NCBI GenBank assembly: GCA_964575695.1
Contig: CAZNSC010000003.1
Coordinates: 1-56,818 of the forward strand
Direction: 5' to 3'
DNA: 56,818 nt
Source of the DNA: an uncultured Dehalococcoidales bacterium
GTDB taxonomy: Bacteria; Chloroflexota; Dehalococcoidia; Dehalococcoidales; W111
A program made the translations under genes and the position numbers. Below the pieces are notes generated by a model. That model was not told the origin of the DNA, made no database searches, and worked only from the letters and a program-made list of their open reading frames with translations. Positions 6,660 to 26,757 of this stretch are shown piece after piece. Positions within the stretch are counted from its first letter, which is position 1. Each line of letters opens with the position of its first letter.

Positions 6660-7286
6660 TTACAGGTCTTGTTTTAAGGACACCACAGCCCACTTTTCTT
6701 GGAAACTCCCCCCTCGTTCGACTCTGAATCCTTCAAGTATCTTCTCCCACTCCGCTTGGTCTACATAACCCAGAGGAGGCCCAGCACCCAGGCTAAGGTA
6801 TGCCTGTCCACTTGACTTGAGGATACGCTTCATTTCTTTTACAGACAACTGTCTGTCGTCAGCCATAGATCACAATAGGCCATTGGCAAGAATGAAGTCA
6901 ACCGACCTGTCTTTTATAAAGCTCACGTCGGAGGCAGATGAAGCATGTGCTTCGATGTTGCGGTAACCACCTTTACCTGCTCTTTTCTCTAGCGTTCGGA
7001 TACTCGTTTTGCCCAGATCAACCGCATAGACCTTTCCTTCGGGACCAACGAGTTCAGCCAAAGGGAGCGTATAGTAACCTGAGCCGCAACCAAGGTCAGC
7101 AACCACCTGCCCTTTCTTGACGTAGGGTCCGATAAGTCTTTGAGGGGGTTCAAACAGCCTTCTGATTGGGTTCAGAATCGCTGGAATCGATGGTCGTCTC
7201 CTCATTAATAACCAGCGTGACGCCGTCGACTTTGTTTGGTCTTTGGGCTGTTTCTTTCCCCCAGGTTCATGTTTTTCTTTGCCCAT
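6660..7286 (-). CDS. Class I SAM-dependent methyltransferase interrupted by one in-frame TGA (selenocysteine candidate or pseudogene)
   Basis: ORFs 6870-7286 (motif I DLGCGSGY) and 6660-6866 are in the same frame, separated by TGA (6870-6872) plus one codon. Paralog of 15626-16177. Hairpin at 6841-6856. Confidence 0.7.
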
Positions 7287-8223: not shown

Positions 8224-8409
8224 TTAGAGGAGATTCAAGGACGTGGCCCGTTTGATTGCCTGAGCACGATTGCGGACACCCAGCTTAGCATAGATATTAT
8301 GAGCATGGGTCTTAATTGTACTCACTGTGAGTACAAGCTTTCTCGCAATTTCTTCGTTGGATAGGTCGTCAGCAAGCAAGCGCAACACTTCAAGTTCACG
8401 CTCAGTCAT
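8224..8409 (-). CDS. Stand-alone LuxR/GerE-type HTH protein (61 aa)
   Basis: TERELEVLRLLADDLSNEEIARKLVLTVSTIKTHAHNIYAKLGV is a canonical GerE HTH. I take ATG 8409 as the start because the upstream part overlaps the preceding ORF. Confidence 0.75.
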   Translation of the reverse strand: MTERELEVLRLLADDLSNEEIARKLVLTVSTIKTHAHNIYAKLGVRNRAQAIKRATSLNLL

Positions 8410-8417
8410 GGGTTCGA

Positions 8418-8684
8418 TTAAAGGCTGGTAGGCGAGTGTCCATAAATCACGAACTTGACCACCTTGCCCTTTACCAGCCATTTCTCAGACTCCGCCCTTA
8501 GCTTTCCAAAATCCGTGGTCTGTAGAAAAAGCCTCAAAATCTCAAGTCTCTCTTCGAGCTCTTTGCTTGTTTCTCTTGGAGCAAGGAGTTGCTTTAAGGT
8601 ATCTTCATATTTTCTTCCGGCTACCGTTTCAATATAGTGAGAGAGGTCCGGAACCAGTTCAATCTGCAGCATCTCACGCCTCAT
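8418..8684 (-). CDS. Hypothetical protein, paralog of 14950-15243
   Basis: About 40% identity over 41 aa (LEILRLFLQTTDFGKLRAESEKWLVKGKVV vs FEMLVSFLKSPESQKLRDESERYLAEGKQV). Starts 2 nt after the upstream stop. Confidence 0.55.
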   Translation of the reverse strand: MRREMLQIELVPDLSHYIETVAGRKYEDTLKQLLAPRETSKELEERLEILRLFLQTTDFGKLRAESEKWLVKGKVVKFVIYGHSPTSL

Positions 8685-8686
8685 GA

Positions 8687-9160
8687 TTAAGTAAATCTTC
8701 TCGCCAGCAGCCTTGTCGCCGGCAGAATCAGAATCGGAATAAGAGCTATAAGCGCCAGGATATCAATAGCCATATTGACTATCCCAGTGCTGCCAAAAGC
8801 CTGCCGTATCCCATCAACGGTATAGGTAAGCGGTAGCACATAGGCAATCTGCTGGAGTATCAGGGGAAGGGATGAGACTGGGGTGAAAACACCGCTTAAG
8901 AAAACCATCAGGAAGCGGGGTAGGTTGGCCAGTGTCTGCGCCTCAAACACCTCCCTGACCAGAACGCATATCAGGGCCCCCAGAGCAGAGAACAGCAGCA
9001 GCGATGGCACTAAAGTCAGGAGAAGATAGAGTACGTTAACCTGGTAAAGCCCCAAGGCGATGACAGACACCAGGGTCACCACCGCCGTTATCATCAGCCC
9101 GAAGACGGCACCTCCTAGCACCTTTCCCAGAAGTACACTCGATAGAGTCAACGGCGCCAA
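8687..9160 (-). pseudogene. N-terminally truncated ABC-2 permease
   Basis: Only the C-terminal ~4 TM segments are open. Sequence upstream (9161-9290) still reads permease-like but contains stops. No ATPase partner is present. Confidence 0.6.
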
Positions 9161-9305
9161 GGAATCGTTCTGGGCTGTACTGAGCTACCCTTACTCATCC
9201 GCTCTGGTGATGTGGAGGTCCCGCTGTTCGATACGACCCGAATACATGCTGAGGTTGCAGTCAAACTGGCGCTGGGTGAATAAAATAAGGTGACGATTGC
9301 AGGGC

Positions 9306-9334
9306 TTGACAAAGAGGGGCATAAGGTGTATTAT
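9306..9334 (+). promoter_or_regulatory. Sigma70-type promoter of the 9.4-17.4 kb operon
   Basis: TTGACA (9306-9311), a 17-nt spacer and TATTAT (9329-9334), 66 nt upstream of ATG 9400. Confidence 0.6.
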
Positions 9335-9348
9335 GGTTATGAGCATAT

Positions 9349-9372
9349 GTGCAATACACTAATGTTATGCAC
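9349..9372. promoter_or_regulatory. Imperfect 24-nt palindrome in the operon leader (candidate operator)
   Basis: GTGCAATACACTAATGTTATGCAC matches its own reverse complement at 18 of 24 positions. It lies between the -10 box and the RBS. Confidence 0.3.
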
Positions 9373-9399
9373 AAAACATCAATAATAGGAGAATCGTTT

Positions 9400-9873
9400 A
9401 TGGGAAGACCACAACTGTGGCGGCGCGTTAGCTTCGTACCACCAATAACCTATTTCAAGCCCGCCGGGATACCCTTGGCCAGTCTGCAAGAAGTACACCT
9501 TCTTGTTGAAGAAGCGGAGGCAATTCGGCTTAAGGACCTTGAGGGGCTGGAGCAGGAGGAATGCGCCCAGAAGATGAACATCTCCAGGAGCACTTTCTCC
9601 CGCATATTGGATTCAGCCCGGCAGAAAATTGCCGACGCTCTACTTAACGGTAAGGCAATACGGATTGAGGGCGGCAATTTTGAGATGGCGGTGCGCCGCT
9701 TCAGATGCATAAGTGGCCATGAGTGGGATGTGCCCTTTGAGAGTCTGGTTACTGCTCCACCTGAGCTTTGCCCTAAGTGTGACACGCCGAGCATTATGCC
9801 GCTTCTGCCACCTGGAATGGGATGGGGTCGGCGTGGTTGGGGAAGGCGCCACCGGGGAGGACGTAGCCGGTAG
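9400..9873 (+). CDS. DUF134 (UPF0251) HTH protein with C-terminal zinc ribbon and RG/GW-rich tail
   Basis: [39 protein letters not shown] and GKAIRIEGG. These are followed by CISGHEW..CPKCD and [19 protein letters not shown]. Confidence 0.85.
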
Positions 9874-9887
9874 AGGAGTCTTACAAC

Positions 9888-10625
9888 GTGAAAGTCCTTG
9901 ATGATTTGCTGGCAATATTGGATACGGAAGCTAGCGTAAAAGACATACGCCAGGGTCTTTTCCATACCGCGGTGCTGACCCGAAACTGCGGCCTGGCGGC
10001 AACGCTTCCACGAGACGCCCTTCGGCAGGAACAACCATCGATCAAGATAAAGGAGCCCGGGTTCCTGCTGGAGAAAAATGCCTTGCATCTGGCTCGAATG
10101 TGTTATTCGGAAAGTATTCTTGAAGCAGCTATTGGCGTGGCTACCATCAACTCGCTCCTCGAGATTGACGAAGGGAGCTGCCAGAGCCTCAATGCCCGGG
10201 ACCTTATTGCTGAGGAAGGAAGGAATAGGAGAGTCGCCATCGTGGGCCATTTCCCCTTTATACCCAAGCTTCGTGAGGTGGTGAAAGAACTCTGGGTAAT
10301 CGAGAAGAATCCAAGGGAAGGAGACTTCGCCGAAGCTGAGGCAGAGGATTTCATCCCGCAGGCTGATGTCGTGGGTATCACCGGTACCGCTTTTACCAAC
10401 CACACCATTGAGCGCTTACTGCAACTATGCAATCCCGATGCTTACGTGGTGATACTTGGAGATACTGCCCCCTTGTCTCCCATTCTCTTTGACTATGGTA
10501 TTGATGCCATATCAGGCACGAAGGTAATTGACCCGGACTTGGCCCTCCGTTGCGTGAGTGAGGGAGCCACCTACCGGCAGATTAAAGGAATTCGCCAACT
10601 TACTATGATGAGGAACAGGAGATAA
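9888..10625 (+). CDS. DUF4213/DUF364 family protein (putative metal-chelation, Rossmann-like)
   Basis: GTG start after GAGGAG. N-terminal ...FHTAVLTRNCGLA and C-terminal VAIVGHFPFI...ILGDT pattern typical of the family. Confidence 0.7.
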   Translation: MKVLDDLLAILDTEASVKDIRQGLFHTAVLTRNCGLAATLPRDALRQEQPSIKIKEPGFLLEKNALHLARMCYSESILEAAIGVATINSLLEIDEGSCQSLNARDLIAEEGRNRRVAIVGHFPFIPKLREVVKELWVIEKNPREGDFAEAEAEDFIPQADVVGITGTAFTNHTIERLLQLCNPDAYVVILGDTAPLSPILFDYGIDAISGTKVIDPDLALRCVSEGATYRQIKGIRQLTMMRNRR

Positions 10626-10628
10626 ACA

Positions 10629-11039
10629 TTGAACCGGCGCAGCACGGAGCAGCGTGAACTAATGCAGGAAATCCTGCAGTGTGCTGACGGCCACCTGGAC
10701 GCCGATGAGATCTACCAGCAGGCCCGCCAGAGGGCACCCAGCATCAGCCTATCCACTGTATACCGTAATTTGCAGCTGTTCAAGGAACTGGGCTTGGTCG
10801 AGGAGCACCAGTTTGGCAGTCGCCGATATTATGAACCGGCCCCTCAAGCCAAGCATCACCACCTGGTATGCCTGGGCTGCGGTCGGGTTTTTGAATTCAA
10901 ATGTCCGTCCAGTGACAGGCTTAGAGACGAAATTAGCAGAAAAGAAGGATTCAGGGTGACCGAAGCTGAGGTTCGTCTTGCTGGATATTGTCCGGATTGC
11001 CAGGAGCGCCTGTCTGTTAGTGCTAGCGAAAACAGATGA
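10629..11039 (+). CDS. Fur family transcriptional regulator
   Basis: TEQRELMQEIL...LSTVYRNLQLFKELGLV winged helix. HHHLVCLGCG and C-terminal CPDC metal sites. TTG start. Confidence 0.85.
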   Translation: MNRRSTEQRELMQEILQCADGHLDADEIYQQARQRAPSISLSTVYRNLQLFKELGLVEEHQFGSRRYYEPAPQAKHHHLVCLGCGRVFEFKCPSSDRLRDEISRKEGFRVTEAEVRLAGYCPDCQERLSVSASENR

Positions 11040-11064
11040 ATATCCGGTGAAGGAGGTGAGGTAA

Positions 11065-11274
11065 ATGCCATTCGGAGATGGGACTGGACCAAGGGGGATA
11101 GGACCGATGACGGGAAGGGGAGCTGGCTACTGTGCTGGCTTTGGCCGGCCCGGCTTTGCCAACCCGATACCGGGAAGAAGGTGGTCTGGCTTTGGCTGGA
11201 GAGGCTGGGGGCGCGGCAGAGGTAGAGGCTCCGGCTGGCGCTGGTGTAGACCGTACTGGTACTCTTGGTGGTAG
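11065..11274 (+). CDS. DUF5320-type low-complexity protein (N-terminal-half type)
   Basis: MPFGDGTGPRGIGPMTGRGAGYCAG followed by an RG/GW-rich tail ending WYSWW. GAAGGAGGTGAGG RBS. Confidence 0.75.
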   Translation: MPFGDGTGPRGIGPMTGRGAGYCAGFGRPGFANPIPGRRWSGFGWRGWGRGRGRGSGWRWCRPYWYSWW

Positions 11275-11309
11275 AAGCACAAATAGAAATCTTTGTGGAG
11301 GTGGGAGAT

Positions 11310-11519
11310 ATGTGGCCCTGTTATGGATACTGGCATCCATGGGGAGGGGGCGGGCACAGGCACTGGTGGGTTCCACCTTTTGCCTGGGCGTGGGCACCCG
11401 TACCCAAGGAAGAAGAGATAGCCATGCTGGAAGAGCAGGCACGAATACTTGGGTGTGAACTGGAAAGCATCACGAAGAGACTTGAAGAGTTGAAGAAACA
11501 GGAGGTGAAAAATGCCTAA
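11310..11519 (+). CDS. Trp/Gly-rich protein with DUF5320-type C-terminal coiled coil
   Basis: ATG 11310 after GGAGGTGGGAG. WPCYGYWHPWGGGGHRHWWVPPFAWAWAP followed by EEEIAMLEEQARILGCELESITKRLEELKK. Confidence 0.65.
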   Translation: MWPCYGYWHPWGGGGHRHWWVPPFAWAWAPVPKEEEIAMLEEQARILGCELESITKRLEELKKQEVKNA

Positions 11520-11856
11520 TGGATTTGGACGAGGAAGAGGCTTCGGCCGCGGCTTTGGTGGAGGTATGGGTTTCGGTTTCCGTGGTGCCTCGCCTCCCTG
11601 GCCCTACGTGGGGATAGGCAGAGGTGGACTGCCGCGATGCGGCTACTTTTTGAGTGGCGCTGGCGCGCCTGCGCCCTGGCAGTACCAGGCCCCCTTCTAT
11701 GGTCAACCAGCCGCCCCTGGCTATACACCCTTTACGCCTCAAATGACCAAAGAGGATGAGCTTGACTATTTGAGAGACCAGGCGGAGGCGGTAAAGGGGC
11801 AGCTAGAGGAGATTGAAGCCAGGATGCGTGACCTGGAGAGCAAGCAAAAGGAATAA
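11512..11856 (+). CDS. DUF5320 family protein (RG/FG-rich plus coiled coil)
   Basis: MPNGFGRGRGFGRGFGGGMGFGFRG... then EDELDYLRDQAEAVKGQLEEIEARMRDLE. AGGAGGTG RBS. 8-nt overlap with the previous gene. Confidence 0.75.
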   Translation: MPNGFGRGRGFGRGFGGGMGFGFRGASPPWPYVGIGRGGLPRCGYFLSGAGAPAPWQYQAPFYGQPAAPGYTPFTPQMTKEDELDYLRDQAEAVKGQLEEIEARMRDLESKQKE

Positions 11857-11870
11857 CTGAGGAGGAGGCC

Positions 11871-12482
11871 ATGAAAATCGCAATTTCGGCGGCGGGTTCT
11901 AGTCTCGATGCCGGGGTAGACCCTCGCTTCGGGCGGTGTCAGTATTTCATTGTTGCCGACGCGGAGACGAAGGAATTTGAGGCGGTGGACAACTCCAGTG
12001 CCATGGCAGCCGGTGGAGCCGGTATTTCGGCCGCTCAGGCGATTGCCGATAAGGGCGTGGAGGCAGTCCTGACCGGAAACTGCGGCCCTAACGCCTATCA
12101 AGTGCTGTCCTCTGCTGGCATCCGGGTGATAACCGGTGTTTCCGGCAAGATAAGGGACGCTATCGAAGGCTACCGGTCGGGTAGGTTCCAGTCAAGCGCC
12201 CAGCCCAATGTACCCGACCACTTTGGTGTGGGCGGAAGGCCTGGTATAGGAGGTGGCCCTGGCGCGGGCAGAGGTATGGGAATGGGGAGAGGGATGGGCA
12301 GAGGAATGGGTATGGGGTTTGGCATGACCCCGCCGGTGAGTGCAATACCCCAGCCGCAGAGTCCAGAGCAAGAGCTTGAGACGCTTAAAGCGCAGTCACA
12401 GGCAATGGCACAGCAGCTGGCTGACATTCAGCGCCGTATTGATGGGCTAGAAAAGAAAAGTGAAGGGAATGTTCAGTTCTGA
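11871..12482 (+). CDS. NifX/NifB-C-terminal-like cofactor-binding domain fused to a Gly/Met-rich segment and coiled coil
   Basis: MKIAISA...DPRFGRCQYFIV...LTGNCGPNAY is dinitrogenase FeMo-cofactor-binding-domain-like. GRGMGMGRGMGRGMGMGFGM lies at 12225-12326, followed by a coiled coil. Confidence 0.85.
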   Translation: MKIAISAAGSSLDAGVDPRFGRCQYFIVADAETKEFEAVDNSSAMAAGGAGISAAQAIADKGVEAVLTGNCGPNAYQVLSSAGIRVITGVSGKIRDAIEGYRSGRFQSSAQPNVPDHFGVGGRPGIGGGPGAGRGMGMGRGMGRGMGMGFGMTPPVSAIPQPQSPEQELETLKAQSQAMAQQLADIQRRIDGLEKKSEGNVQF

Positions 12483-12531
12483 GGTCGAGGGCTGAGCTAA
12501 ATGCACTGAAAGAATCTGAGGAGGTGGCGCA

Positions 12532-12729
12532 ATGCCCAAAGGAGATGGAACCGGGCCTCCGCGCACTTCGGCGCAGAGGAGCGGTCGAATGAAAGGGAAT
12601 CGAGCGGGGGCAGGACCCGGCGGCAACTGTGTGTGCCCTAGCTGTGGCGAGAAGGTGCCTCATCAGCAGGGAATACCTTGTTACGGTGTGAGCTGTCCCA
12701 AATGTGGGGTAAAGATGGTCAGAGGCTAA
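12532..12729 (+). CDS. Cys4 zinc-ribbon mini-protein with DUF5320-like N-terminus
   Basis: MPKGDGTGP... then CVCPSCG...CPKCG. GAGGAGGTGG RBS. Confidence 0.7.
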   Translation: MPKGDGTGPPRTSAQRSGRMKGNRAGAGPGGNCVCPSCGEKVPHQQGIPCYGVSCPKCGVKMVRG

Positions 12730-12731
12730 AA

Positions 12732-13604
12732 ATGTTAATATCAGTCGCCAGCGGTAAAGGCGGGACGGGTAAGACGCTGGTAGCCACTAGTCTTGCTCTC
12801 TCCTTGAAAGATAGCCACAAGGTCGTGCTTCTTGACTGTGATGTCGAGGAGCCCAACGACCATATTCTACTAAAGCCAGTAATTGTCGGCAGTGAACCAG
12901 TTCATATCCAAGTACCCAAGGTTACAGAGGATAAATGTACCTGTTGCGGCAGGTGCGCTCAGGTATGTGTCTATCACGCCATTGCCGTACTGGGCAATCA
13001 TGTGCTGACCTTTCCCCAGCTCTGCCACGGGTGTGGTGCCTGCAGCTACCTCTGCCCGGAGAAGGCTATCGCTGAAGAGACCAGGGAGACAGGCGTGGTT
13101 GAGTGGGGGCGCTCGGATGGCATCGGTCTTGTACACGGCATACTCACGGTGGGTGAGGCGATGGCGCCGCCGGTTATCAGGAAGGTGAAAGAATATGGCA
13201 AAGACAATGGCGATGGCGTAGTCATCAGAGATGTTCCGCCGGGCACATCCTGCCCGGTAGTCGAAGCAATTAAAGGAAGCGATTTCTGTCTGCTGGTAAC
13301 CGAGCCGACTCCGTTCGGGCTCAACGACCTCATGCTTGCCGCCGAAACGGTGAGGGAGCTCAACATACCCTGTGGCGTTGTCCTCAACCGTGCCGGTGTC
13401 GGCGACGCCGGAGTAGAAGAATACTGCCGAAAAGAGAATATCCCTGTTCTGCTCACCGTCCCCCTGGATACCGAGATTGCCCGCCTGTATTCGAGGGGGA
13501 TTCCCTTGATTGAGGGTATGCCAGAGTGGAAAGAGCGTTTCGTGGCGCTATTTGACGGAATTCGGGAGATAGCAAATGAGAGAGTTAGTCGTATTAAGCG
13601 GTAA
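12732..13604 (+). CDS. MinD/CooC-type P-loop ATPase with inserted 2x[4Fe-4S] ferredoxin domain
   Basis: Deviant Walker A SGKGGTGKT. CTCCGRCAQVCVYHAI and CHGCGACSYLCPEKAI motifs. Confidence 0.9.
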   Translation: MLISVASGKGGTGKTLVATSLALSLKDSHKVVLLDCDVEEPNDHILLKPVIVGSEPVHIQVPKVTEDKCTCCGRCAQVCVYHAIAVLGNHVLTFPQLCHGCGACSYLCPEKAIAEETRETGVVEWGRSDGIGLVHGILTVGEAMAPPVIRKVKEYGKDNGDGVVIRDVPPGTSCPVVEAIKGSDFCLLVTEPTPFGLNDLMLAAETVRELNIPCGVVLNRAGVGDAGVEEYCRKENIPVLLTVPLDTEIARLYSRGIPLIEGMPEWKERFVALFDGIREIANERVSRIKR

Positions 13605-14448
13605 AGGAGGCACCGGAAAGACCAGCATCGTTGGTTCCCTGGCTGCTCTGGCTCAAAGCAAGGTGCTGGCTGACTGCGATGTGGATGCGGCTGACCTGTA
13701 CCTGCTGCTCAGCCCCACCGTCAGGGAGAATAACGAGTTCTGGAGCGGACAGGTGGCCTATATAGACAAAGACGGATGCACTGAGTGTGGACTGTGCCAG
13801 GAGTTGTGCCGTTTTAATGCTATCAAGGATTTCAGAGTTGACCCGGTAGCCTGTGAGGGATGTGGTTTCTGTTCTCGCATCTGCCCGGTTGAAGCCATCA
13901 CTATGAAAGAAAATATGGCTGGGCGTTGGTTTATCTCCGATACCGGGTATGGCCCGCTGGTTCATGCCAAACTTGGCATTGCCCAGGAGAATTCAGGGAA
14001 GCTGGTGGCGCTGGTCCGGCAGCGGGCGAGACAGACTGCCGATAAAGAGGGAAAAGATTTCATCATCAGTGACGGCCCGCCCGGTATCGGCTGCCCGGTA
14101 ATCTCATCACTTTCCGGGGCCAGCCTGGCTCTTCTGGTTACTGAGCCGACGTTATCCGGGATACATGACCTGGAGAGAGTCCTGGGCGTGTGCCAGCATT
14201 TCGGCGTCCCGGCCAAGGTATGCATCAACAAGTGCGACCTGAACGAGGAAAACAGCCGGCAGATAGAAAATAACTGTCTTAGCCTGGGAGTAGAGATAGC
14301 CGGGAGGGTTCCTTTTGATAACCTTGTTACTGAATCAATCGTCCGGGGGGTACCGGTGGTGGAATATTCCAGGGGCAGAGTCACTCAAGCGATAGAAAGA
14401 ATGTGGCGCACTCTGTCGGCGATGCTGGGGAATGGTAGCCAGAGGTGA
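13576..14448 (+). CDS. Second MinD/CooC-type ATPase with 2x[4Fe-4S] ferredoxin domain
   Basis: SGKGGTGKTS, CTECGLCQELCRFNAI and CEGCGFCSRICPVEAI. Overlaps the previous gene by 29 nt. Confidence 0.9.
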   Translation: MRELVVLSGKGGTGKTSIVGSLAALAQSKVLADCDVDAADLYLLLSPTVRENNEFWSGQVAYIDKDGCTECGLCQELCRFNAIKDFRVDPVACEGCGFCSRICPVEAITMKENMAGRWFISDTGYGPLVHAKLGIAQENSGKLVALVRQRARQTADKEGKDFIISDGPPGIGCPVISSLSGASLALLVTEPTLSGIHDLERVLGVCQHFGVPAKVCINKCDLNEENSRQIENNCLSLGVEIAGRVPFDNLVTESIVRGVPVVEYSRGRVTQAIERMWRTLSAMLGNGSQR

Positions 14449-14454
14449 CAGACT

Positions 14455-14634
14455 ATGCCAATCTATGAGTACGGATGTCTTAAATGCAGTGAGCGCTTCG
14501 AGCTACGGCGGAGCATGAGCGATAGCGACCGGGAAGTAAAATGTCCCAGGTGTGGGACAGAGAATCCGCGCCGCGTCTTCTCCGCCTTTGCCACAGCTTC
14601 TGGCGGCTCCTGTGCTCCGAGCGGCCCCACCTGA
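14455..14634 (+). CDS. FmdB-family zinc-ribbon protein (59 aa, below the ORF-track cutoff)
   Basis: My translation is MPIYEYGCLKCSERFELRRSMSDSDREVKCPRCGTENPRRVFSAF..., the CxxC-CxxC FmdB signature. Confidence 0.75.
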   Translation: MPIYEYGCLKCSERFELRRSMSDSDREVKCPRCGTENPRRVFSAFATASGGSCAPSGPT

Positions 14635-14698
14635 AGTGTTAGCTCGTGAGGCAGGCTGTCTCATATGAAACAAGTTTTGAAAGGAGGGGAAATAGGCG

Positions 14699-14926
14699 GT
14701 GCCAATTTACGATTTTAAGTGTCGAGAGTGCGGCAAGGTGTCAGAGGTACTTATCCGGGGTGCCGAGGAGCCACCTCGCTGCCCCGATTGCGGCAGTGAT
14801 GACTTGGAGAGGCTCATGTCCTCACCCAATATGGTCAGGACGACTACTCGGGCTCCCGGCACTACTTGCTGTGGCCGGGATGAGCGTTGCGGTGCGCCGC
14901 CTTGTTCTACCGGGGATCCCTGCTGA
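14699..14926 (+). CDS. FmdB-family zinc-ribbon protein with Cys-rich tail
   Basis: GTG start after AAAGGAGGGG. PIYDFKCRECG...CPDCGS then TCCGRDERCGAPPC. Confidence 0.8.
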   Translation: MPIYDFKCRECGKVSEVLIRGAEEPPRCPDCGSDDLERLMSSPNMVRTTTRAPGTTCCGRDERCGAPPCSTGDPC

Positions 14927-14949
14927 CGGCACTAGGGAGGATAGACAAC

Positions 14950-15243
14950 GTGGAGCCGATTGACCTCAAGCCAGGGTATTCAAGCAGTAATGTGCCGGGG
15001 AAATGTATCAAGTGCCTGGCTGAGCAGGAGCTTGATAGGTGCCTTCTTGAGTTAATGAGAGCCGGGTCAGACGATAAGGCGTTGGCGCAGAGATTTGAGA
15101 TGCTGGTATCTTTCTTGAAATCGCCTGAGTCGCAGAAGCTGCGTGACGAATCAGAGAGGTATCTTGCTGAGGGGAAACAGGTGACTGTCAGGATATCTTT
15201 TGAAGACGGGAATCCCAAATACGAACTCAAAGTAAATCAGTAA
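14950..15243 (+). CDS. Hypothetical protein (paralog of 8418-8684)
   Basis: GTG 14950 after GGGAGG. Contains CIKC and shares the C-terminal motif KLRDESERYLAEGKQV. Confidence 0.6.
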   Translation: MEPIDLKPGYSSSNVPGKCIKCLAEQELDRCLLELMRAGSDDKALAQRFEMLVSFLKSPESQKLRDESERYLAEGKQVTVRISFEDGNPKYELKVNQ

Positions 15244-15255
15244 ACGGAGGTATCT

Positions 15256-15594
15256 ATGAAGTATGCCGTACCAATAAGCGGCGGTATGGTATCGCCACAC
15301 TTCGGTCATTGTGAGCATTTTGCCCTGATCGACGTTGACGAGGAAAGTAAGAAGATAATCAGGAAAGAGCTTATCCCGTCACCGGGTCACCAGCCCGGTC
15401 TTCTTCCCCAATGGCTGGCGGAGCGAGGTGTCGCCTTTGTGATTGCCGGCGGTATGGGCTCCCGGGCACAGAGCCTTTTCCAGCAAAATCGCATCGGGGT
15501 CATCATCGGTGCCATGGAAAGCGACCCGGAGAAGGCGGTTCTGAGTTATGTGAATGGTCTACTAGCTACCGGGGATAACATATGTGACCATTAA
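15256..15594 (+). CDS. NifX/NifB-like cofactor-binding domain protein
   Basis: MKYAVPISGGMVSPHFGHCEHFALIDV...VIAGGMGSRA is typical of the family. ACGGAGG RBS. Confidence 0.85.
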   Translation: MKYAVPISGGMVSPHFGHCEHFALIDVDEESKKIIRKELIPSPGHQPGLLPQWLAERGVAFVIAGGMGSRAQSLFQQNRIGVIIGAMESDPEKAVLSYVNGLLATGDNICDH

Positions 15595-15625
15595 ATTAAA
15601 TGGGAGTTACCCAGGAGGGAGCCAC

Positions 15626-16177
15626 ATGCCTAGACGAGAGGCAATCTGTCCTCAGTCCAATGTTGATTTCAGGCTCATGTCTTTGTCCTATAAATTTCGG
15701 GATTTCATCAAACCCCGCATTCGTGTCCTGGAAGAGGTAGGCATTAAAGAAGGATTCCACGTCTTGGATTATGGCTGTGGTCCCGGAAGTTACATTGTAC
15801 CCCTTGCTGAACTGGTAGGTAAGTCGGGGAAGATTTATGCTCTGGATGTCCATCCACTTGCTATCCAGTCGGTTCGAAGGATAGCAGCCAGGAAACGACT
15901 GGTGAATGTGCATACCATCCTCTCCGACAGCAAGACTGGATTACAGCCCGATAGCTTGGATGTGGTTCTTCTGTACGATATCCTTCACGACCTGGATAAC
16001 CCGAACGGAGTGCTGGAAGAGTTGCACCGGGTGTTAAAACGAAAAGGCATTTTATCGGTGAGCGACCACCACATGAGGCAAGATGAAATAGTATCCAGGG
16101 TAGCCAGTAATGGGCTATTTACGTTATCAGCAAAGGGTAGAAGAACGTATGGTCTCTCATGCCAGAAGAAAGTCTAA
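15626..16177 (+). CDS. Class I SAM-dependent methyltransferase
   Basis: Motif I VLDYGCGPGSY and post-I KIYALDV. ATG 15626 after AGGAGGGAG. Paralog of 6660-7286. Confidence 0.85.
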   Translation: MPRREAICPQSNVDFRLMSLSYKFRDFIKPRIRVLEEVGIKEGFHVLDYGCGPGSYIVPLAELVGKSGKIYALDVHPLAIQSVRRIAARKRLVNVHTILSDSKTGLQPDSLDVVLLYDILHDLDNPNGVLEELHRVLKRKGILSVSDHHMRQDEIVSRVASNGLFTLSAKGRRTYGLSCQKKV

Positions 16178-16209
16178 CAAATTAATGTATTCAGGAACGG
16201 AGGTAACCT

Positions 16210-17214
16210 ATGCCAACAAAGGAGCAGGTAATTGAAAGCCTTGAAGCCGTATTGGTGCCCGCTGCGAAACGCAGCATAGTGGGGCTGAACCTGGTGCGCG
16301 ATATAACCATCTCCAATGGTAAAGTAGATGTTGCCCTGGCGTCCACCGGCCTGATTCCAGGGGCGCAGGACTGGATCAAAGCCAAAGCCAGAGAAGCTAT
16401 TGAGAAGCTGCCTGAAGTCAATGAAGTCAAGGTGGAGTATAGTGACTTCAAGGCAAAGGAGTTGAACAAGATTGACCACATCCTCGCCGTGATGAGCGGC
16501 AAGGGAGGAGTGGGCAAGTCGCTGGTGTCAAGCCTGGTTGCCATCGCGCTGAAGCGCCAGGGCTATGAGGTGGGCATTCTGGATGCCGATATCACCGGCC
16601 CGAGCATACCCAAGATGTTCGGCCTCAACGTTCGGCCAGGCGGCAACGAAAGTGGGATACTGCCGGTGCTGTCGAGGTCAGGAGTTGAAATCATGTCCAT
16701 CAACCTCCTCCTGCCCAGCGAGGATGATGCTGTTATCTGGCGAGGACCCCTGATCGGAAAAGCGATTACCCAATTTGGGGAGGAGGTGCTCTGGGGAAAG
16801 CTGGACTATCTGATTATAGACCTGCCTCCAGGTACTGCGGATGCACCGCTTACGGTGATGCAGTCCTTCCCAATTTCAGGGGTGATTATTGTTTTTACCC
16901 CTCAGGATTTGACCACGATGGTAGTCAGAAAAGCGGTCAAGATGGCCCAGCAAATGAGTAAACCTGTGCTGGGCGTTGTTGAGAATATGAGCTACCTGTA
17001 TGTATCTGAGATAGACAAAAAGATAGAGCTCTTTGGCAAGAGCCGGGGCGAGGAAATGTCCCGTGCCGCCCAGGCCCCCCTGCTGGCGCAGTTGCCCATA
17101 GACCCGGAGCTGGCCAGGCTCTGTGATGAGGGGAATATCGAGCGCTACAACAGCGATATTGTAAGTAGTCTGGCCGACTCCCTGTCTAAAGTAATTCCAG
17201 CTAGAGCCAGGTAA
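16210..17214 (+). CDS. DUF59-Mrp/NBP35/ApbC-type P-loop ATPase lacking the CxxC cluster motif
   Basis: N-terminal DUF59-like domain, SGKGGVGKS, DLPPGTAD. VENMSYLYVSEIDKKIELFG sits where ApbC has ENMSxxxCxxCG. Confidence 0.9.
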   Translation: MPTKEQVIESLEAVLVPAAKRSIVGLNLVRDITISNGKVDVALASTGLIPGAQDWIKAKAREAIEKLPEVNEVKVEYSDFKAKELNKIDHILAVMSGKGGVGKSLVSSLVAIALKRQGYEVGILDADITGPSIPKMFGLNVRPGGNESGILPVLSRSGVEIMSINLLLPSEDDAVIWRGPLIGKAITQFGEEVLWGKLDYLIIDLPPGTADAPLTVMQSFPISGVIIVFTPQDLTTMVVRKAVKMAQQMSKPVLGVVENMSYLYVSEIDKKIELFGKSRGEEMSRAAQAPLLAQLPIDPELARLCDEGNIERYNSDIVSSLADSLSKVIPARAR

Positions 17215-17228
17215 GACAGGAGGTGAAC

Positions 17229-17405
17229 ATGACTTCATCATGGGAGAAGTTTGAGGAACTAATTAAGCAGGAGATGAGAAAGATATACTCTGAGGCCGTC
17301 ATCGAGCACAGCATGAATCCGAAGAATCTGGGCGACCTTGAGGACCCTGACGGTTTTGCTCGGGTTACCGGCCCCTGTGGTGATACTATGTCCGTATGGC
17401 TTTAA
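17229..17405 (+). pseudogene. Truncated IscU/NifU-like scaffold (first ~58 aa only)
   Basis: YSEAVIEHSMNPKNLGDLEDPDGFARVTGPCGDTMSVWL then a stop. The two downstream cluster-ligand cysteines are missing. Confidence 0.65.
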
Positions 17406-17547
17406 AAGCTATACCAAACGAGGGTTAATTTAATGACGTGCGAGTACTCCCTGGGTTACTACTCGCAGCCGCTGCTTGTGATGGTTTCACCATATGATTA
17501 GTCGTAGTATAATATAAAGGGGCGCTGTATCTTTGTGAGGGGCCAAT

Positions 17548-18220
17548 ATGCTACAGGTGTTGGTGGTAGATCACCACGAAATCTGGCGCGTCGGGGTATC
17601 AAAGATACTTGGTGAACAGCTAGGCATCCAGGTGGTAGAACCATGCAGTAATATAAATCAATGTCTGGAGAAAGTTGCCCGATATTGTTCTTCTAGATAC
17701 TGAACTACGAGAACCAAGCTACGTCGAGATTATTCAGCACATCCATGAATGTGGCTCCAAGGCAAAGGTACTCATGCTCACTCATTCAGAGAGGGAAGAG
17801 GATGTTTATTACGCTATCAAAGCAGGAGCCAAGGGGTATGTTAGCAAAGAGGTAGCAATAGAAGACCTGGTGAAGGCCATCTTCCTTGTGGCAAGCGGAG
17901 GGGTTGTACTATCCCCTATGGTAGCAACTCAAGTTCTCGAAGAATTTGCAGAATCTTTTCCAGAGAGGCAGCGTATACATCGGAGGGGTGGCTTTGAACT
18001 CACTGAGCGAGAAAAGGAAGTTCTGGTATTAGTAGCCAAGGGCGCAAACAACCGAGCGATAGCCTCGTCCTTATGTATTACAGAAAACACTGTCAAGGTG
18101 CACTTGCGCAACATAATGGGGAAACTGCAAGTACATAACCGCTTGCATGCAGCAGCAAGGATGCTGGAAGAAGAGGCACTGCATCGTAGAACAGGAGGAC
18201 CTGCTTCAAATAAATGGTGA
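17548..18220 (+). pseudogene. NarL/FixJ-type response regulator, frameshifted near 17675
   Basis: The receiver N-terminus MLQVLVVDHHEIWR... (frame of 17548) stops at 17698. PDIVLLD...LuxR HTH (EREKEVLVLVAKGANNRAIASSLCITENTVKVHL) continues in another frame. Confidence 0.65.
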
Positions 18221-21877: not shown

Positions 21878-22189
21878 ATGATTAGAGTTGGTCTGTTGAC
21901 AAGCAGTGTTATAATATTAGCACGTTAGAAATTCTGTGTGAGCGTCGCTTCCGGCACCTTCACGTTAGGAATGGACGGTGACACGAGGGTTTCTGAGCAA
22001 TTGCCAACTAATTCTTGCTGGATAACGCATACATTCTTCTTTTCAGGTAGGCCCAAAAGTAACCAGCTTTTGAAAGGCACCGCGATCAAAGAACAGCGAC
22101 CTTACGGAAGGGAGGGGGAACGAGTAATAGGTTTGGGCAGAACTTGGAAGACCGCGGCAAAAAGTAAAAGGAAAGGAAGGGCAAGTAAT

Positions 22190-23635
22190 ATGTTTTTTGA
22201 CGATCTCAGAAGTTACGCAGAGGAATTGGATAAGAGGGGATGGGTTACTAAAGTAGACGGAGCCGATTGGGATTTGGAAATTGGTACCCTCGCGGAACTG
22301 ATGGCTGAAGAAGCGATCGCCGGGCGGGCAAACGGTGCCCTGCTATTCAACAATATAAAGGGGTACTCGAAAGACCTCCGGATTCTTGCCAATTGCCTTG
22401 TTACTCCAAAATTGCAGAGGCTTGCCTTTGGCGATCCTGAGGGTATATCAAACATTGAAGTTATTAAGCTTTGGAGAGACAGGCTCATAAACTATAAGCC
22501 GGTTCCTGCTAGAGAGGTCAAATCTGGATTTATCACTGAAAATGTAATTACAGGTGACCAAATAGACTTGTCCATATTTCCTACTCCAAAGTGGCACGAG
22601 AAGGACGGTGGGCGTTATATCGGAACAGGTTGCGAGGTCATCACAAAAGACCCCAGAGACGGTTGGATAAACGTTGGGACTTATCGCTCAATGGTACACG
22701 AGAGGGATGTCCTCTCATTCTATATGTCACCCAAAAAGCATGGCGCAGCGCATCGTGAGGAATACTGGGCGAAGGGGGAAGATTGTCCTGTTGTAATGGT
22801 ATTCGGTGGGGAACCACTCCTATTTTGGGCTGGTGCGCAGGAGATACCCTGGCATGAAGAGGAACTCTCTTGGATAGGACATATAAAAGGCAGGCCAGTT
22901 GAAGTCATAAGAGGTGAATACACAGGGTTACCTATACCGGCTCAAGCTGAAATAGCCATAGAAGGCTTTGCACCGCCGCCATCGCGTGAAAAAAGGAACG
23001 AAGGCCCATTTGGAGAGTATACCGGATATTATGCCTCTGGGGTTAGAGAAGAGCCAGTAGTCCACGTGAAAGCCATATACCATAGAAATGACCCCATAAT
23101 GTTTGGGCAACCTCCTCTAAAGCCACCATATTGTGTCAATTGGCCAATACCTATACATTCGGCTACTATGCTATGGCATTACTTGGAGATGGCAGGCCAA
23201 AGAGGAATTATGGGTGCATGGGTACATGGGACTAATGGTATGGCTTTCCCTGTTGTATCTATCAAACAAGGGTACCCAGGACATTCTGGCGAAGTAGCTA
23301 CGTTGGCGGCAGCTATAAACTACAGGACGAAGATCGCCATCGTAGTAGATGAGGATATAGATCCTTCAAATTGGGAAGACGTGATGTGGGCAGTGGCCTC
23401 GAGGTGGGATCCTTCAGCAGGAGTACAGCTGGTTCCTGGAATCAGAGGCAGTGCTTTAAGTCCGTGGGTGCCACCGGAAAGGAGAGCTAAGAGAGATTTT
23501 GCAGAGACTGCACTGGTCATAAATGCATGCAAGCCGTACTATTGGAAAGACCAATTCCCACCCGTTAACCGGGCAAGCCAGGAACTGCGGAAGAAGGTCA
23601 GGGATAAGTATATTAACCTCTTCCAGCAGTCTTGA
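22190..23635 (+). CDS. UbiD-family (prFMN-dependent) decarboxylase/carboxylase
   Basis: 481 aa from MFFDDLRSYAEELDKRGW.., with UbiD-typical length and N-terminus. The 84-aa upstream ORF extension looks non-coding. Confidence 0.85.
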   Translation: MFFDDLRSYAEELDKRGWVTKVDGADWDLEIGTLAELMAEEAIAGRANGALLFNNIKGYSKDLRILANCLVTPKLQRLAFGDPEGISNIEVIKLWRDRLINYKPVPAREVKSGFITENVITGDQIDLSIFPTPKWHEKDGGRYIGTGCEVITKDPRDGWINVGTYRSMVHERDVLSFYMSPKKHGAAHREEYWAKGEDCPVVMVFGGEPLLFWAGAQEIPWHEEELSWIGHIKGRPVEVIRGEYTGLPIPAQAEIAIEGFAPPPSREKRNEGPFGEYTGYYASGVREEPVVHVKAIYHRNDPIMFGQPPLKPPYCVNWPIPIHSATMLWHYLEMAGQRGIMGAWVHGTNGMAFPVVSIKQGYPGHSGEVATLAAAINYRTKIAIVVDEDIDPSNWEDVMWAVASRWDPSAGVQLVPGIRGSALSPWVPPERRAKRDFAETALVINACKPYYWKDQFPPVNRASQELRKKVRDKYINLFQQS

Positions 23636-23788
23636 GCAGCTTTGCACGTTTAAGGCAGATGCCACCGGCTAAAAACCTAGGATGTCAATACCACGACAGG
23701 TTGATCGAAAAACCTCTAAAGAGATGACAAAATAGACTTATATTGGGTTGTGTTTTCATAAATACCGGGTGTTCATAGGAGGAAGAAA

Positions 23789-24538
23789 ATGGTGTTCAAA
23801 CCGCTGAGACTGAGGTGGTTGGGGGTTGACTTCGGTCAATGTCTTATGAGTCCTAGTGGCTTACGTAATGAGCTTAACTTTGGTTCCATCATGAAAGACC
23901 TGGGCAGGCCAGATGAAATTGCTGAAAAGATCCGACGTTACCGCCGCCTGAAAGAGAAGTATGGTTCAATGGGTGCTATAAAAGAAGGACACAGGAATGA
24001 AATCCTGGAATATGTCTTTGATGGCGATACAGAGGCTATGGCCGTTTTCGGCAAATATGAGACAGAATTGCTCTCGCTTGGGAGAGGTGCTGTCGATACA
24101 TTGCCATGGTTAAGAGATCAAGGGATTGAGCTAGACCTGGTGGCCGAAGGTAAGAAAACATTGGGCCCGATTACGTCTCACCAAGTCTTTACATTTCTGC
24201 GAGTCAAAGGACTGACGCAATACTTCCGCTTTGTCACTATGCCCATAGGTAAGACTGATCTGCTGGATTTTAGTACCGACCTATCTTGTGAAGGCAAAAC
24301 TAAGGAATCGGGTACACTGTGGGATTGTGTGATTGAAGACCTAACCAAGCGAGGCTTCAAAATAGACGAGTGTGCTGTCATTGGTGACAAGCTGGTCACT
24401 GACATTGAGCCGACCCGCAAGAGAGGCTTCCATACAATTCAATTCGCTGGATATGTTGATGGTGGGGATTCTGCAGATGCTGAATACAAGGTCTACAGCT
24501 GGTCGGAGCTGAAAGACTTTGTTGTAGGAGTAAAGTAG
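23789..24538 (+). CDS. HAD-superfamily-like hydrolase with degenerate motif I
   Basis: Motif I reads GVDFGQC (DxG instead of DxD). Motif IV is VIGDKLVTDI. AGGAGGAAG RBS. Confidence 0.6.
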   Translation: MVFKPLRLRWLGVDFGQCLMSPSGLRNELNFGSIMKDLGRPDEIAEKIRRYRRLKEKYGSMGAIKEGHRNEILEYVFDGDTEAMAVFGKYETELLSLGRGAVDTLPWLRDQGIELDLVAEGKKTLGPITSHQVFTFLRVKGLTQYFRFVTMPIGKTDLLDFSTDLSCEGKTKESGTLWDCVIEDLTKRGFKIDECAVIGDKLVTDIEPTRKRGFHTIQFAGYVDGGDSADAEYKVYSWSELKDFVVGVK

Positions 24539-24764
24539 ATGGGAAAAGGGGATGTGTTCAGGTTTGTATAACGGCGGTGCATTGCCAGGTAGATAACATG
24601 GAGGCGATAGCGAGGGTGACAGGAATAGGTTACGACACCTCGAAATCATAGAAGGGGGGGAACGAACTTATTCACGCTGAGCATCTGGCGAGAACTGGAG
24701 AAAATGATCAAGCTACCAGGTTAGTCTTCCGCTAACAAACTGACATAAGCAAAGGAGTAAAGGG

Positions 24765-25457: not shown

Positions 25458-25599
25458 AGGTAGAAATTTGGGTAATGGTGACACCACGGTTTTCCAAGAG
25501 AGGTAATAAGAAGGATAACGACAGGTATGGGAATTTGCCGCATCGTAGGTGAGCTATTCAGGAGGAAGGGGAGATATTGTTGTAAAAAAGGGGGGTGTC

Positions 25600-26688: not shown

Positions 26689-26757
26689 GGGGATGCGGAA
26701 ATGAGCAAGTAAGTTGATCAAGGCATTCAGACGAAAAAACCAAATAAGGAGCAGAAA

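Follow-up and report, generated by a model that had tools for sequence, protein, structure and literature searches.

Anaerobes widely carry the orange protein (ORP) gene cluster, at least one archaeon expresses it at a high level, and its role has been in question since 2011. Here we analyse an operon of 17 genes from an uncultured Dehalococcoidales bacterium (assembly GCA_964575695.1, contig CAZNSC010000003.1, positions 1-56,818, forward strand; this whole stretch of 56,818 nucleotides is called the window below), which is very probably the Dehalococcoidia version of this cluster. We compare it with the ORP complex of Desulfovibrio and with the storage protein IssA of Pyrococcus furiosus. An earlier reading of the window, made from the sequence only, had held that no function was assigned to the ensemble; its core is in fact named in the literature as the ORP complex, the physiological role of which is described there as unclear (PMC6345978, PMC8359166).

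In Desulfovibrio vulgaris Hildenborough the ORP complex is encoded by DVU2103-DVU2109 and includes Orp3, 4, 5, 8 and 9 (PMC6345978, PMC8359166, PMC3897727). Orp3 and Orp4 are MinD-like proteins with two [4Fe-4S] motifs each, Orp8 is the NifX-like orange protein, and Orp9, or MrpORP, joins an Mrp P-loop domain and, in one protein, a NifX-like 'Di-Nase' domain with the motifs CxHFGHCE and a C-terminal CDH (PMC6345978). Orp3, Orp4 and Orp8 co-purify, MrpORP transfers iron-sulfur (Fe-S) clusters to them, and carrier function in the Mrp family is defined by a CXXC motif, to which the bridging [4Fe-4S] cluster binds (PMC6345978). The orange protein carries a non-covalent [S2MoS2CuS2MoS2] cluster (literature cited in PMC6345978). 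Expression of orp depends on sigma-54, OrpR and IHF and is off at raised redox potential, and the physiological role is called unclear, possibly in cell division (PMC6345978, PMC8359166, PMC3897727). In Archaeoglobus fulgidus the genes AF2378 (NifX) to AF2380 (CbiA) are constitutively highly expressed and have been linked to orp (PMC3949148).

The storage and trafficking of iron and sulfur in strict anaerobes are poorly understood. IssA (PF2025) of P. furiosus, built of a NifX-like domain and a cationic Gly/Arg/aromatic tail which is proposed to bind thioferrate, stores both elements as thioferrate nanoparticles and rebuilds the [4Fe-4S] cluster of ferredoxin, in a reconstitution done with dithiothreitol; its authors also noted uncharacterised mesophilic relatives with Gly-rich tails (PMC5524996). 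In Methanococcus voltae two NifX-like IssA homologues, with locus tags four apart, are both induced on pyrite, and a thioferrate-like electron paramagnetic resonance signal has been recorded (PMC8516115).

The operon, its relatives and its core genes

Related loci were collected by a scan of one genome per species, which gave 80 loci, nearly all of them from Dehalococcoidia metagenome-assembled genomes, and synteny was assessed by tblastn of the 17 proteins against these loci. Presence counts were taken over 32 loci in which the anchor has 3 kb or more of sequence on its upstream side and 7 kb or more on its downstream side (Table 1). The genes, numbered g1 to g17 in their order, are plus-strand open reading frames (ORFs) which together occupy 9349-17405, the first gene start being at 9400. 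The starts of g5, g9, g13, g15 and g17 were re-set by Shine-Dalgarno position and orthologue length, and with them the successive intergenic gaps are 14, 3, 25, 35, -8, 14, 49, 2, -29, 6, 64, 23, 12, 31, 32 and 14 nt. GGAGG-like ribosome-binding sites stand ahead of nearly all genes. No plus-strand promoter consensus match falls into the gaps, and internal consensus matches, as well as terminator-like matches in the operon, occur at chance level only. The sequence-only reading had proposed 17 plus-strand genes behind one promoter, with gaps from -29 to +64 nt and strong ribosome-binding sites; all ORFs and the promoter-like site were located where it had placed them, and its spacing was reproduced with the re-set starts. 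The whole window contains neither an Rfam match nor a tRNA, and the idea of a riboswitch or other RNA in the operon leader was dropped on this ground.

The same gene order and strand recur in most of the 80 related loci. This arrangement is far beyond chance, the orthologues are not scattered, and Pfam and NCBIfam confirm almost every family that had been named for these ORFs. The cluster is thus a real, conserved 17-gene single operon. The closest full match (L005/L084, GCA_011191985.1) has an identical order, Fur included, and continues with a full-length NifU_N gene of 149 amino acids (aa), a radical S-adenosylmethionine (SAM) gene and a second Fur gene. The Fur, DUF364 and methyltransferase genes are lineage-specific variable add-ons. 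G+C content of the operon is 0.53-0.56 versus 0.46-0.50 in the flanks, with a strongly positive GC skew (10001-16000); both may come from Gly/Arg-rich coding or from a different origin.

The assignment to the ORP type is based on the likeness of g7 to the orange protein structure, of g14 and g16 to the two halves of MrpORP, on the g9/g10 pair and on g13, a member of the AF_2379 family. The best PDB match of g7 residues 2-113 is the orange protein of Desulfovibrio gigas (2WFB, E 8.2e-22, 81 bits), followed by MTH1175 (1EO1, 5e-19). The NifX-like domain of g7 (residues 1-113) is followed by a disordered (GMGRG)n block (114-160; isoelectric point (pI) 12, 38% Gly) and a C-terminal helix (165-199), a layout also given by the AlphaFold2 (AF2) model, with a folded domain at 1-111, disorder at 112-162 and a long helix at 165-199. 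More than 7000 homologues of g7 exist; among the 120 matches listed all but one have the two-domain architecture, the exception having PF02579 alone, and the named ones among them are from Dehalococcoidia. A look-up of the exact g7 sequence found it not on record.

Of the two halves of MrpORP, the Di-Nase half is represented by g14, which carries SPHFGHCEHF and GDNICDH, that is, HFGHCE and the C-terminal CDH, and matches positions 265-363 of the NCBIfam MrpORP model (NF041136) with 120 bits. The P-loop half is g16, with the deviant Walker A motif SGKGGVGKS, a full-length ParA/NUBPL domain (ApbC model, 214 bits) and a match to MrpORP positions 1-245 (307 bits). Neither protein reaches the 450-bit cut-off of the MrpORP model, and a single fused MrpORP is not encoded here. 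In relatives the genes of g14 and g16 type are adjacent, and here the methyltransferase gene g15 stands between them, probably as a local acquisition, since a paralogue lies nearby and g15 is found within the cluster in only two relatives. This nearby methyltransferase ORF (6807 to 7265-7286, minus strand) is 30% identical to g15. In g16 the sequence ENMSYLYVSEIDKK replaces ENMS..C..C and the entire protein has one Cys; CXXC was found in 0 of 49 orthologues. The published carrier mechanism can therefore not apply to g16 unchanged.

The ATPases g9 and g10 are 34% identical and 51% similar. The sequence-only reading had given each of them two CxxCxxCxxxCP motifs; two CxxCxxCxxxC motifs are indeed present in each protein, the CP ending belonging to the second one only. 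The PDB contains no structure of a ferredoxin-MinD fusion. For g13, 97 aa long, the local Pfam copy gave no match, and the number of the gene after which its family is named falls between AF2378 and AF2380. The paralogue of g13 that had been proposed upstream of the operon was recovered (Table 1), and in at least 12 related loci a g13 homologue is likewise found upstream of DUF134 on the opposite strand.

The operon ends with a remnant. A full IscU/NifU domain has about 120-150 residues and three Cys ligands, and g17, read earlier as a truncated IscU-like scaffold, is indeed a 58-residue remnant of a 149-residue gene: it is 86% identical to residues 1-58 of the L084 orthologue (NCBIfam NifU_clost, 4.6e-9). 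The rest of the IscU gene and the radical SAM gene which follows it in relatives are absent from the window. With a CXXC-less g16 and such a remnant, the Mrp-like ATPase and the IscU protein cannot be expected to work as their family names imply, in which respect the earlier reading went too far. In 24 loci the gene after IscU is of the radical SAM type, and the weak best matches of its product include a tungsten-cofactor maturase and MoaA. A thioredoxin gene is present in 10 loci, and in L001 a thioredoxin-reductase-like gene adjoins it.

A reduced variant of the cluster was noticed in L085 (10001-15873), with DUF134, DUF364, two DUF5320 genes, AF_2379, NifX and Mrp; it is devoid of the orange protein and of the ferredoxin-ATPases, and continues with a ModA-like SBP_bac_11 protein and a second DUF364. 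No other locus, of 83, has the ModA-like gene, and a general link of the cluster to molybdate transport was rejected for this reason.

Table 1. Features of the operon and related elements; coordinates refer to the window unless a related locus is named, and the last column gives the number of loci, out of 32, in which the gene is present
Feature	Position	Strand	Basis and remarks	Loci of 32
Sigma-70-like promoter	9306..9334	+	-35 TTGACA, 17-nt spacer, -10 TATTAT; 11/12 matches	
Operator, 20-bp palindrome TTATGAGCATATGTGCAATA	9337..9356	.	Directly after the -10 box; family consensus aTTATGrnCATATGyyCATAAt	
Putative degenerate second operator copy TTATGCACAAAACATCAATAA	9365..9385	.	Read from the sequence	
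g1, DUF134 DNA-binding protein, predicted operon repressor	9400..9873	+	Pfam DUF134 1.7e-24	28
g2, DUF4213 + DUF364 ('putative heavy-metal chelation'), variable accessory	9888..10625	+	Pfam; PDB 3L5O 1.7e-19	11
g3, Fur-family regulator, Fur/Mur-like, variable accessory	10629..11039	+	Pfam FUR 4.5e-33	4
g4, 'tail-only' DUF5320	11065..11274	+	Pfam 57.7 bits	
g5, DUF5320, aromatic-rich N-part, C-terminal coiled-coil helix	11310..11519	+	Pfam about 28.1-28.2 bits, profile positions 51-99; start ATG, Shine-Dalgarno GGAGGTGGGAG; L084 orthologue 69 aa	
g6, full-length DUF5320	11512..11856	+	Pfam 28.2 bits	28
g7, orange-protein (ORP/MTH1175)-type NifX-like protein with tail	11871..12482	+	Pfam Nitro_FeMo-Co (PF02579, IPR003731) 2.1e-25 + DUF5320	
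g8, mini-protein, MPKGDGTGP N-motif, CPxCG...CPxCG zinc ribbon	12532..12729	+	Sequence; weak Zn_Ribbon_1 match	25
g9, MinD/CbiA-type ATPase (GKGGTGKT), inserted 2x[4Fe-4S] ferredoxin domain	12732..13604	+	Pfam CbiA/ParA + Fer4	28
g10, second ferredoxin-MinD ATPase, g9 paralogue	13576..14448	+	Pfam CbiA/ParA + Fer4; 29-nt overlap with g9	28
g11, FmdB-type zinc ribbon (Zn_ribbon_8)	14455..14634	+	Pfam 2.6e-15	22
g12, FmdB-type zinc ribbon, Cys-rich tail	14699..14926	+	Pfam 1.5e-15	12
g13, AF_2379-family small protein	14950..15243	+	Start GTG; orthologues annotated PF27306	
g13 paralogue, AF_2379-like	8418..8684	-	33% identity to g13, E 2e-9; upstream of the operon	
g14, NifX-like, Di-Nase half of MrpORP	15256..15594	+	Pfam 1.3e-21	22
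g15, class I SAM methyltransferase, probable local insertion between MrpORP halves	15626..16177	+	Pfam	2 (in-cluster)
g16, DUF59 (FeS_assembly_P) + Mrp/NBP35-type P-loop ATPase, MrpORP P-loop half	16210..17214	+	Pfam ParA 2.8e-87	27
g17, IscU/NifU-type scaffold remnant, 58 residues, only first Cys ligand left	17229..17405	+	Pfam NifU_N 2.9e-4, below gathering	24 (IscU gene)
Ferredoxin-DUF5320 fusions in related loci	L053 3359-3931; L057 4933-5448; L072 7970-8482; L054 9512-9979			
Examples of downstream genes in related loci	L084 16405-16836; L001 16667-18369			

The promoter region and the DUF134 protein

The promoter of Table 1 is the sole strong plus-strand promoter-like site before position 17486, and in most of 59 related upstream regions a TTGACA -35 box occupies the corresponding place ahead of DUF134. 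A sigma-54 promoter of the Desulfovibrio kind was rejected, as no TGGCAC-N5-TTGC-type site is present near 9150-9400; Pfam detects no enhancer-binding protein gene in the cluster either.

Directly after the -10 box lies the palindromic operator, which was searched for with a tolerance of at most two mismatches. It has a single match in the window. In 1.04 Mb of related loci 63 matches were obtained, 60 of them no more than 200 nt upstream of a DUF134 start and in 56 of 57 loci, while the remaining three are located upstream of DUF5320 genes in loci without DUF134. Ten positions are kept in at least 54 of 58 sites, the invariant ones being TTATG/CATATG/CATAA; the GAAC/GTTC positions vary. A second operator copy follows the first in several related loci, and the operator is present with or without Fur in the cluster.

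The palindrome was also considered as a box for Fur, PerR or Zur, and this was rejected because no canonical Fur-family box is found there: the promoter gave no match to the Fur 19-mer (up to six mismatches) or to Fur and Zur 7-1-7 boxes (up to four mismatches), and its lone PerR-type match, at 9328, is weak, with four mismatches, a threshold which yields 60 matches window-wide. It was rejected as a LexA (Cheo) box as well, on account of the variable GAAC/GTTC positions. The sequence-only reading had called the operon Fur-linked. This label is valid locally only, as Fur is in the cluster in 4 of the 32 relatives, the promoter has no Fur-type box, and the operator travels with DUF134. As for g3 itself, the NCBIfam PerR and Fur models score about equally, and the best PDB match is Magnetospirillum Fur (4RAY). 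In g2 both DUF364 and DUF4213 score above gathering (131.4 and 54.0 bits).

Judging from the sequence, the most probable repressor of the operon is g1, the DUF134 helix-turn-helix (HTH) protein that the operon itself encodes, and g1 would bind the palindrome which overlaps the transcription start; such autoregulation is the most economical reading, because the gene after the operator encodes a DUF134 protein with an HTH. The g1 protein consists of a sigma-region-4-like HTH, a C..H..CPxC mini-domain and a cationic tail. In its AF2 model there is a confident HTH core, the fold of which matches sigma-70 region 4 and DeoR HTH domains, then a small beta module carrying the conserved C..H..CPxC set, and a disordered tail. 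The Cys/His module and the Arg/Gly (RG) tail, of GWGRGGWRRRHRGGRGW type, are present in nearly all orthologues examined. Our literature search found nothing functional on DUF134 or DUF5320.

Cationic tails and a possible metal-sulfide holding system

With the Pfam gathering threshold of 27 bits for DUF5320 (PF17253), g4, g5, g6 and the tail of g7 (38.0 bits) all belong to this family. The g4 protein has the N-terminal motif MPFGDGTGP followed by a GWRGWGRGRGRG...WYSWW region, a pI of 11.8 and no coiled coil. Its orthologues are separate genes of 69-101 aa ending in an aromatic W/Y motif, in at least 25 loci; since g4-type genes stand alone, the possibility that g4 and g5 (Pfam positions 1-59 and 48-99) are one frameshifted DUF5320 gene was rejected. 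In g6 an RG-rich N-part is followed by the conserved motif GFGFRGASPPWPYVGxGRGGLPRC and a coiled coil, and a common C-terminal helix pattern, xEEELxxLkxQaxxlxxqLxxIxxRixeLEkk, unites g5, g6 and g7. The N-terminal motif MPxGDGTGP is common to g4 and g8. The earlier description of g8 as a Cys4 mini-protein was right as to the Cys motifs and had missed this DUF5320-type N-motif. Four related loci encode a g6-type DUF5320 protein with a 2x[4Fe-4S] ferredoxin domain fused to its N-terminus (Table 1), and in the same four (L053, L054, L057 and L072) tblastn found no separate g14-type NifX gene.

The tails were compared with that of IssA, the sequence of which (P0241, 179 aa) was recovered via peptides translated from the cloning primers in the supplement of PMC5524996. 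Its tail reads FGWGRGWGKGRGWGRGWG...RWYYGWW, the full ending being ...PPFGWGRGWGKGRGWGRGWGSILGYCPWTGMPSRRALRWYYGWW, and g4 ends with ...GFGWRGWGRGRGRGSGWRWCRPYWYSWW, having WYSWW where IssA has WYYGWW. Smith-Waterman alignment of the IssA tail with window proteins, evaluated with 300 composition-preserving shuffles, gave a score of 86 and z 3.3 for g4, z 4.8 for g6, z 7.0 for the g7 tail and z 6.2 for the tail of the DUF134 protein g1, with 0 of 300 shuffles reaching the score in each of the four cases. The controls g8, g11 and g13 were not significant (z about 0). The feature common to IssA and to the tails of g1, g4, g6 and g7 is a G[WFM]GRG repeat. Like IssA, g7 begins with a domain of the IPR003731/PF02579 type (32% identical to IssA residues 1-118, E 3e-7), after which a disordered cationic Gly/Arg/aromatic region follows.

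The IssA clade has been defined by a pI of at least 9, fewer than five Cys and at least 20% Gly in the last 40 residues (Vaccaro et al., PMC5524996), values which for IssA itself are 9.5, 1 and 27.5%. The g4 protein satisfies all three and has no NifX domain. The g7 protein (pI 6.6, two Cys and a Gly content of 5% over its last 40 residues) falls outside the clade, because its cationic block is internal and an acidic helix comes after it. From such sequence features, the tail proteins plausibly work like the IssA tail, yet they are not members of the IssA family.

The reading that we prefer, to which we give a probability of roughly 35-40%, is that the operon encodes a holding and hand-over system for an anionic inorganic metal-sulfide species, most likely an iron-sulfur, thioferrate-like one. 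Non-covalent holding of a metal sulfide is suggested by the fact that both characterised relatives do so, the orange protein with Mo-Cu-S and IssA with thioferrate. In such a system the orange-protein-type domain of g7 would nucleate or bind the species non-covalently, the cationic low-complexity regions of G[WFM]GRG/aromatic type in g4, g6 and g7 would wrap it electrostatically, and the common C-terminal helices could tie g5, g6 and g7 into one assembly. The g9/g10 pair might form an ATP-gated dimer, the [4Fe-4S] domains of which would supply electrons for loading or for reductive release. The product would then be passed to apo-proteins by g14 and the CXXC-less g16, in relatives also by IscU and the radical SAM protein, and the DUF134 protein, which would repress the operon, could sense with its cationic tail how full the store is. 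Iron-sulfur is favoured over molybdenum or tungsten since IscU, Mrp-like and ferredoxin modules are constant and Fur is occasionally present, the molybdenum link being variable; the pyrite-induced IssA homologues of M. voltae (PMC8516115) point the same way.

Several observations weigh against this holding and hand-over reading. The metal or ligand is not readable from sequence, and the orange protein, which of the characterised homologues stands closest to the g7 domain, came with a Mo-Cu-S cluster and not with iron when it was isolated; the g7 domain is also much closer to it than to IssA (81 versus 35 bits). As noted above, g7 is outside the IssA clade. The tail similarity is that of a short repeat pattern in low-complexity sequence, and the Pfam DUF5320 model does not match the IssA tail at E <= 10. 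The known mechanism of the cluster carriers requires a CXXC, which the Mrp-like ATPase does not have, a link to cell division is preferred in the ORP literature, and the pairing of DUF134 with the operator derives from co-occurrence, with three operator loci having no adjacent DUF134.

A cofactor theme of this general kind had been put forward before, as an assembly or insertion pathway for Fe-S or heterometal cofactors; the theme as such stands. Assembly or insertion of a heterometal cofactor, with Mo/W-Cu-S or another complex, would agree with the Mo-Cu-S-binding orange protein as best structural homologue of g7 and with a parts list parallel to NifU/NifB/NifX/NifH, in which the ferredoxin ATPases would act like NifH. 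DUF364 has been tied to molybdate transport in M. maripaludis (10.1101/2024.03.05.583561), the second DUF364 of L085 adjoins the ModA-like binding protein, the radical SAM protein encoded after IscU in 24 loci has its weak matches to the tungsten-cofactor maturase and MoaA, and the A. fulgidus authors proposed a role in molybdenum-enzyme biogenesis (PMC3949148). We nevertheless consider this explanation rather unlikely: the ModA-like gene is confined to L085, DUF364 belongs to 11 of 32 clusters only, mod, tup, moa and moe genes are missing from the window, as is a molybdenum-cofactor riboswitch, and the constant partners, namely IscU, Mrp-like and ferredoxin domains together with the occasional Fur, indicate iron-sulfur. 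As was said earlier of this operon, no client enzyme is encoded in it, and none is consistently adjacent. An Fe-S carrier or maturation route without storage is a doubtful candidate, too. Here Mrp/NifX and IscU would mature the ferredoxin-ATPases and other anaerobic Fe-S proteins, with the RG-rich proteins as accessory chaperones or adaptors, in line with the in vitro cluster transfer from MrpORP to Orp3/Orp4 and aconitase (PMC6345978), with IscU in 24 of 32 relatives and with the thioredoxin genes of 10 loci, one of which, L001, has the thioredoxin-reductase-like neighbour. However, the loss of CXXC from all 49 Mrp-like orthologues means that the published mechanism cannot apply as such, and this route leaves no role for up to five IssA-like cationic-repeat proteins or for their common coiled coils.

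That g9, g10 and g16 are MinD/ParA-class ATPases recalls the spatial or cell-division system proposed for the Desulfovibrio ORP complex, where orpR mutants show morphological defects and MrpORP is polar (PMC8359166, PMC6345978). For the present operon this is quite improbable, as there are no division genes in the cluster or the window and all other components are of metal- or cluster-binding types; the Desulfovibrio phenotype may also be indirect. Hardly credible, finally, is a cluster for a ribosomally synthesised and post-translationally modified peptide, in which the small MPxGDGTGP proteins, with their leader-like N-terminus, would serve as precursors on which the radical SAM enzyme and the methyltransferase act. 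Although g4 and g8 do combine a conserved N-terminal motif with variable C-terminal regions, and a radical SAM gene is nearby in relatives, genes for a protease, a transporter or immunity are all missing, and the radical SAM and methyltransferase genes are absent from many clusters. The supposed cores are cationic repeats of 50-100 residues or coiled coils conserved in character, and these regions also occur as fusions with NifX-like and ferredoxin domains.

Going beyond the holding and hand-over system itself, one may speculate that the ORP complex, studied in sulfate reducers, and the IssA thioferrate store, studied apart from it in Thermococcales, belong to one pathway, in which a family of low-complexity prokaryotic proteins of RG/aromatic type, namely DUF5320 and the orange-protein tails, would scaffold a cytoplasmic metal-sulfide condensate or nanoparticle via coiled coils, the ferredoxin-MinD pair would be its ATP- and electron-driven loader or unloader, and the DUF134 repressor would gauge the store by a similar tail. 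We hold this to be unlikely in its full extent. If true, DUF5320, DUF134, AF_2379 and the ORP complex would all receive a function together. Should it prove that the tails do hold such a metal-sulfide phase, a role would follow for four domains of unknown function, and an inorganic client for the RG-rich disordered proteins of bacteria.

Flanking genes and comparison with known systems

Upstream of the operon, next to the g13 paralogue, there is a fragment of an ABC-2 permease (8687-9160, minus strand) which covers profile positions 87-209 of 211 and has its N-terminal part missing. A stand-alone LuxR/GerE HTH ORF of 85 aa (8224-8481, minus strand) overlaps the 3' end of the paralogue by 64 nt. 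Downstream, a promoter-like site (17486-17513) precedes a LuxR/GerE-type response regulator (17548-18220, plus strand) which is split into ORF 17548-17703, with the start of the receiver, and ORF 17675-18220, with its rest and the GerE part; the split is due either to a frameshift or pseudogene or to a sequencing error. The truncated permease upstream, and the truncated IscU together with the frameshifted response regulator downstream, look like rearrangement scars and suggest that the operon is flanked by breakpoints.

In relatives, a gene of the metallo-beta-lactamase fold is common just upstream of DUF134, and downstream there is often a second Fur-family gene, thioredoxin with a thioredoxin-reductase-like gene, PF04060 'FeS', a ZIP transporter, or CooC/CooT (examples in Table 1). 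Neither the metallo-beta-lactamase-fold gene nor these downstream extras adjoin the operon in the window. Farther away, on the plus strand, we noticed a UbiD-family decarboxylase followed by a PPDK_N protein and a phosphoenolpyruvate-utilizer mobile-domain protein (21938-28530), which recalls aromatic activation of the phenylphosphate synthase/carboxylase type, a Ser/Thr protein kinase fused to a beta-helix/NosD region (33657-35882), and a 1200-aa fusion protein of CheB, CheR, PAS and histidine-kinase parts (38982-42584).

The single transcription unit described here unites orange-protein, IssA-like, ferredoxin-ATPase, Mrp-like and IscU parts with a candidate regulator and a sharply defined operator, and it brings the functions of ORP, DUF5320 and DUF134 within reach of a small number of direct tests. 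To our knowledge IssA has not been found in any ORP-type cluster. The operon differs from IssA in that g4, the tail which resembles that of IssA most, is encoded as a polypeptide of its own and has its own N-terminal motif.

Compared with nitrogenase cofactor assembly (NifU, NifB, NifX/NafY, NifH), the system has in common a NifU_N scaffold, NifX-like carriers, SIMIBI Fe-S ATPases and, in relatives, a radical SAM protein. However, nifDK/EN-like genes are missing, the radical SAM protein of the relatives is not NifB, and the ATPases are of MinD/CbiA type with an inserted ferredoxin, not NifH. With the Mrp/NBP35/ApbC carriers g16 shares the deviant Walker A and the full ParA/NUBPL domain, but unlike them g16 and all of its 49 orthologues are without CXXC. 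The AF2378-AF2380 genes of A. fulgidus present a similar trio of a NifX-like protein, an AF_2379-family protein (as g13) and a CbiA-type ATPase; that system is archaeal, and its description covers three genes only (PMC3949148).

The comparison with the D. vulgaris ORP complex is the closest one, both systems being found in anaerobes. The g7 protein corresponds to Orp8 as an orange-protein-type NifX-like protein with an additional tail, g9 and g10 correspond to Orp3 and Orp4 as these are described in the literature, and g16 and g14 supply the P-loop and the Di-Nase part with HFGHCE and CDH. Unlike in D. vulgaris, where two divergent operons depend on sigma-54, OrpR and IHF, here there is one sigma-70 operon with a DUF134-associated operator; MrpORP is split into two genes, with an extra DUF59 on the CXXC-less P-loop half, and the orange protein bears a cationic repeat block and a coiled coil. 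Further components beyond the D. vulgaris set are three to four DUF5320 proteins, zinc ribbons, AF_2379 and IscU, and variably DUF364, Fur and the methyltransferase. Some comparative points concerning the D. vulgaris cluster, such as a possible DUF134 identity of DVU2107, may already be published; with respect to the literature compared, the link between ORP and the IssA tail, the DUF134 operator, the tail of the regulator, the ferredoxin-DUF5320 fusions and the systematic loss of CXXC appear to be new. In short, the ORP core is already known, while the regulatory design, the split CXXC-less MrpORP and the IssA-like tail proteins are what this operon adds to it.

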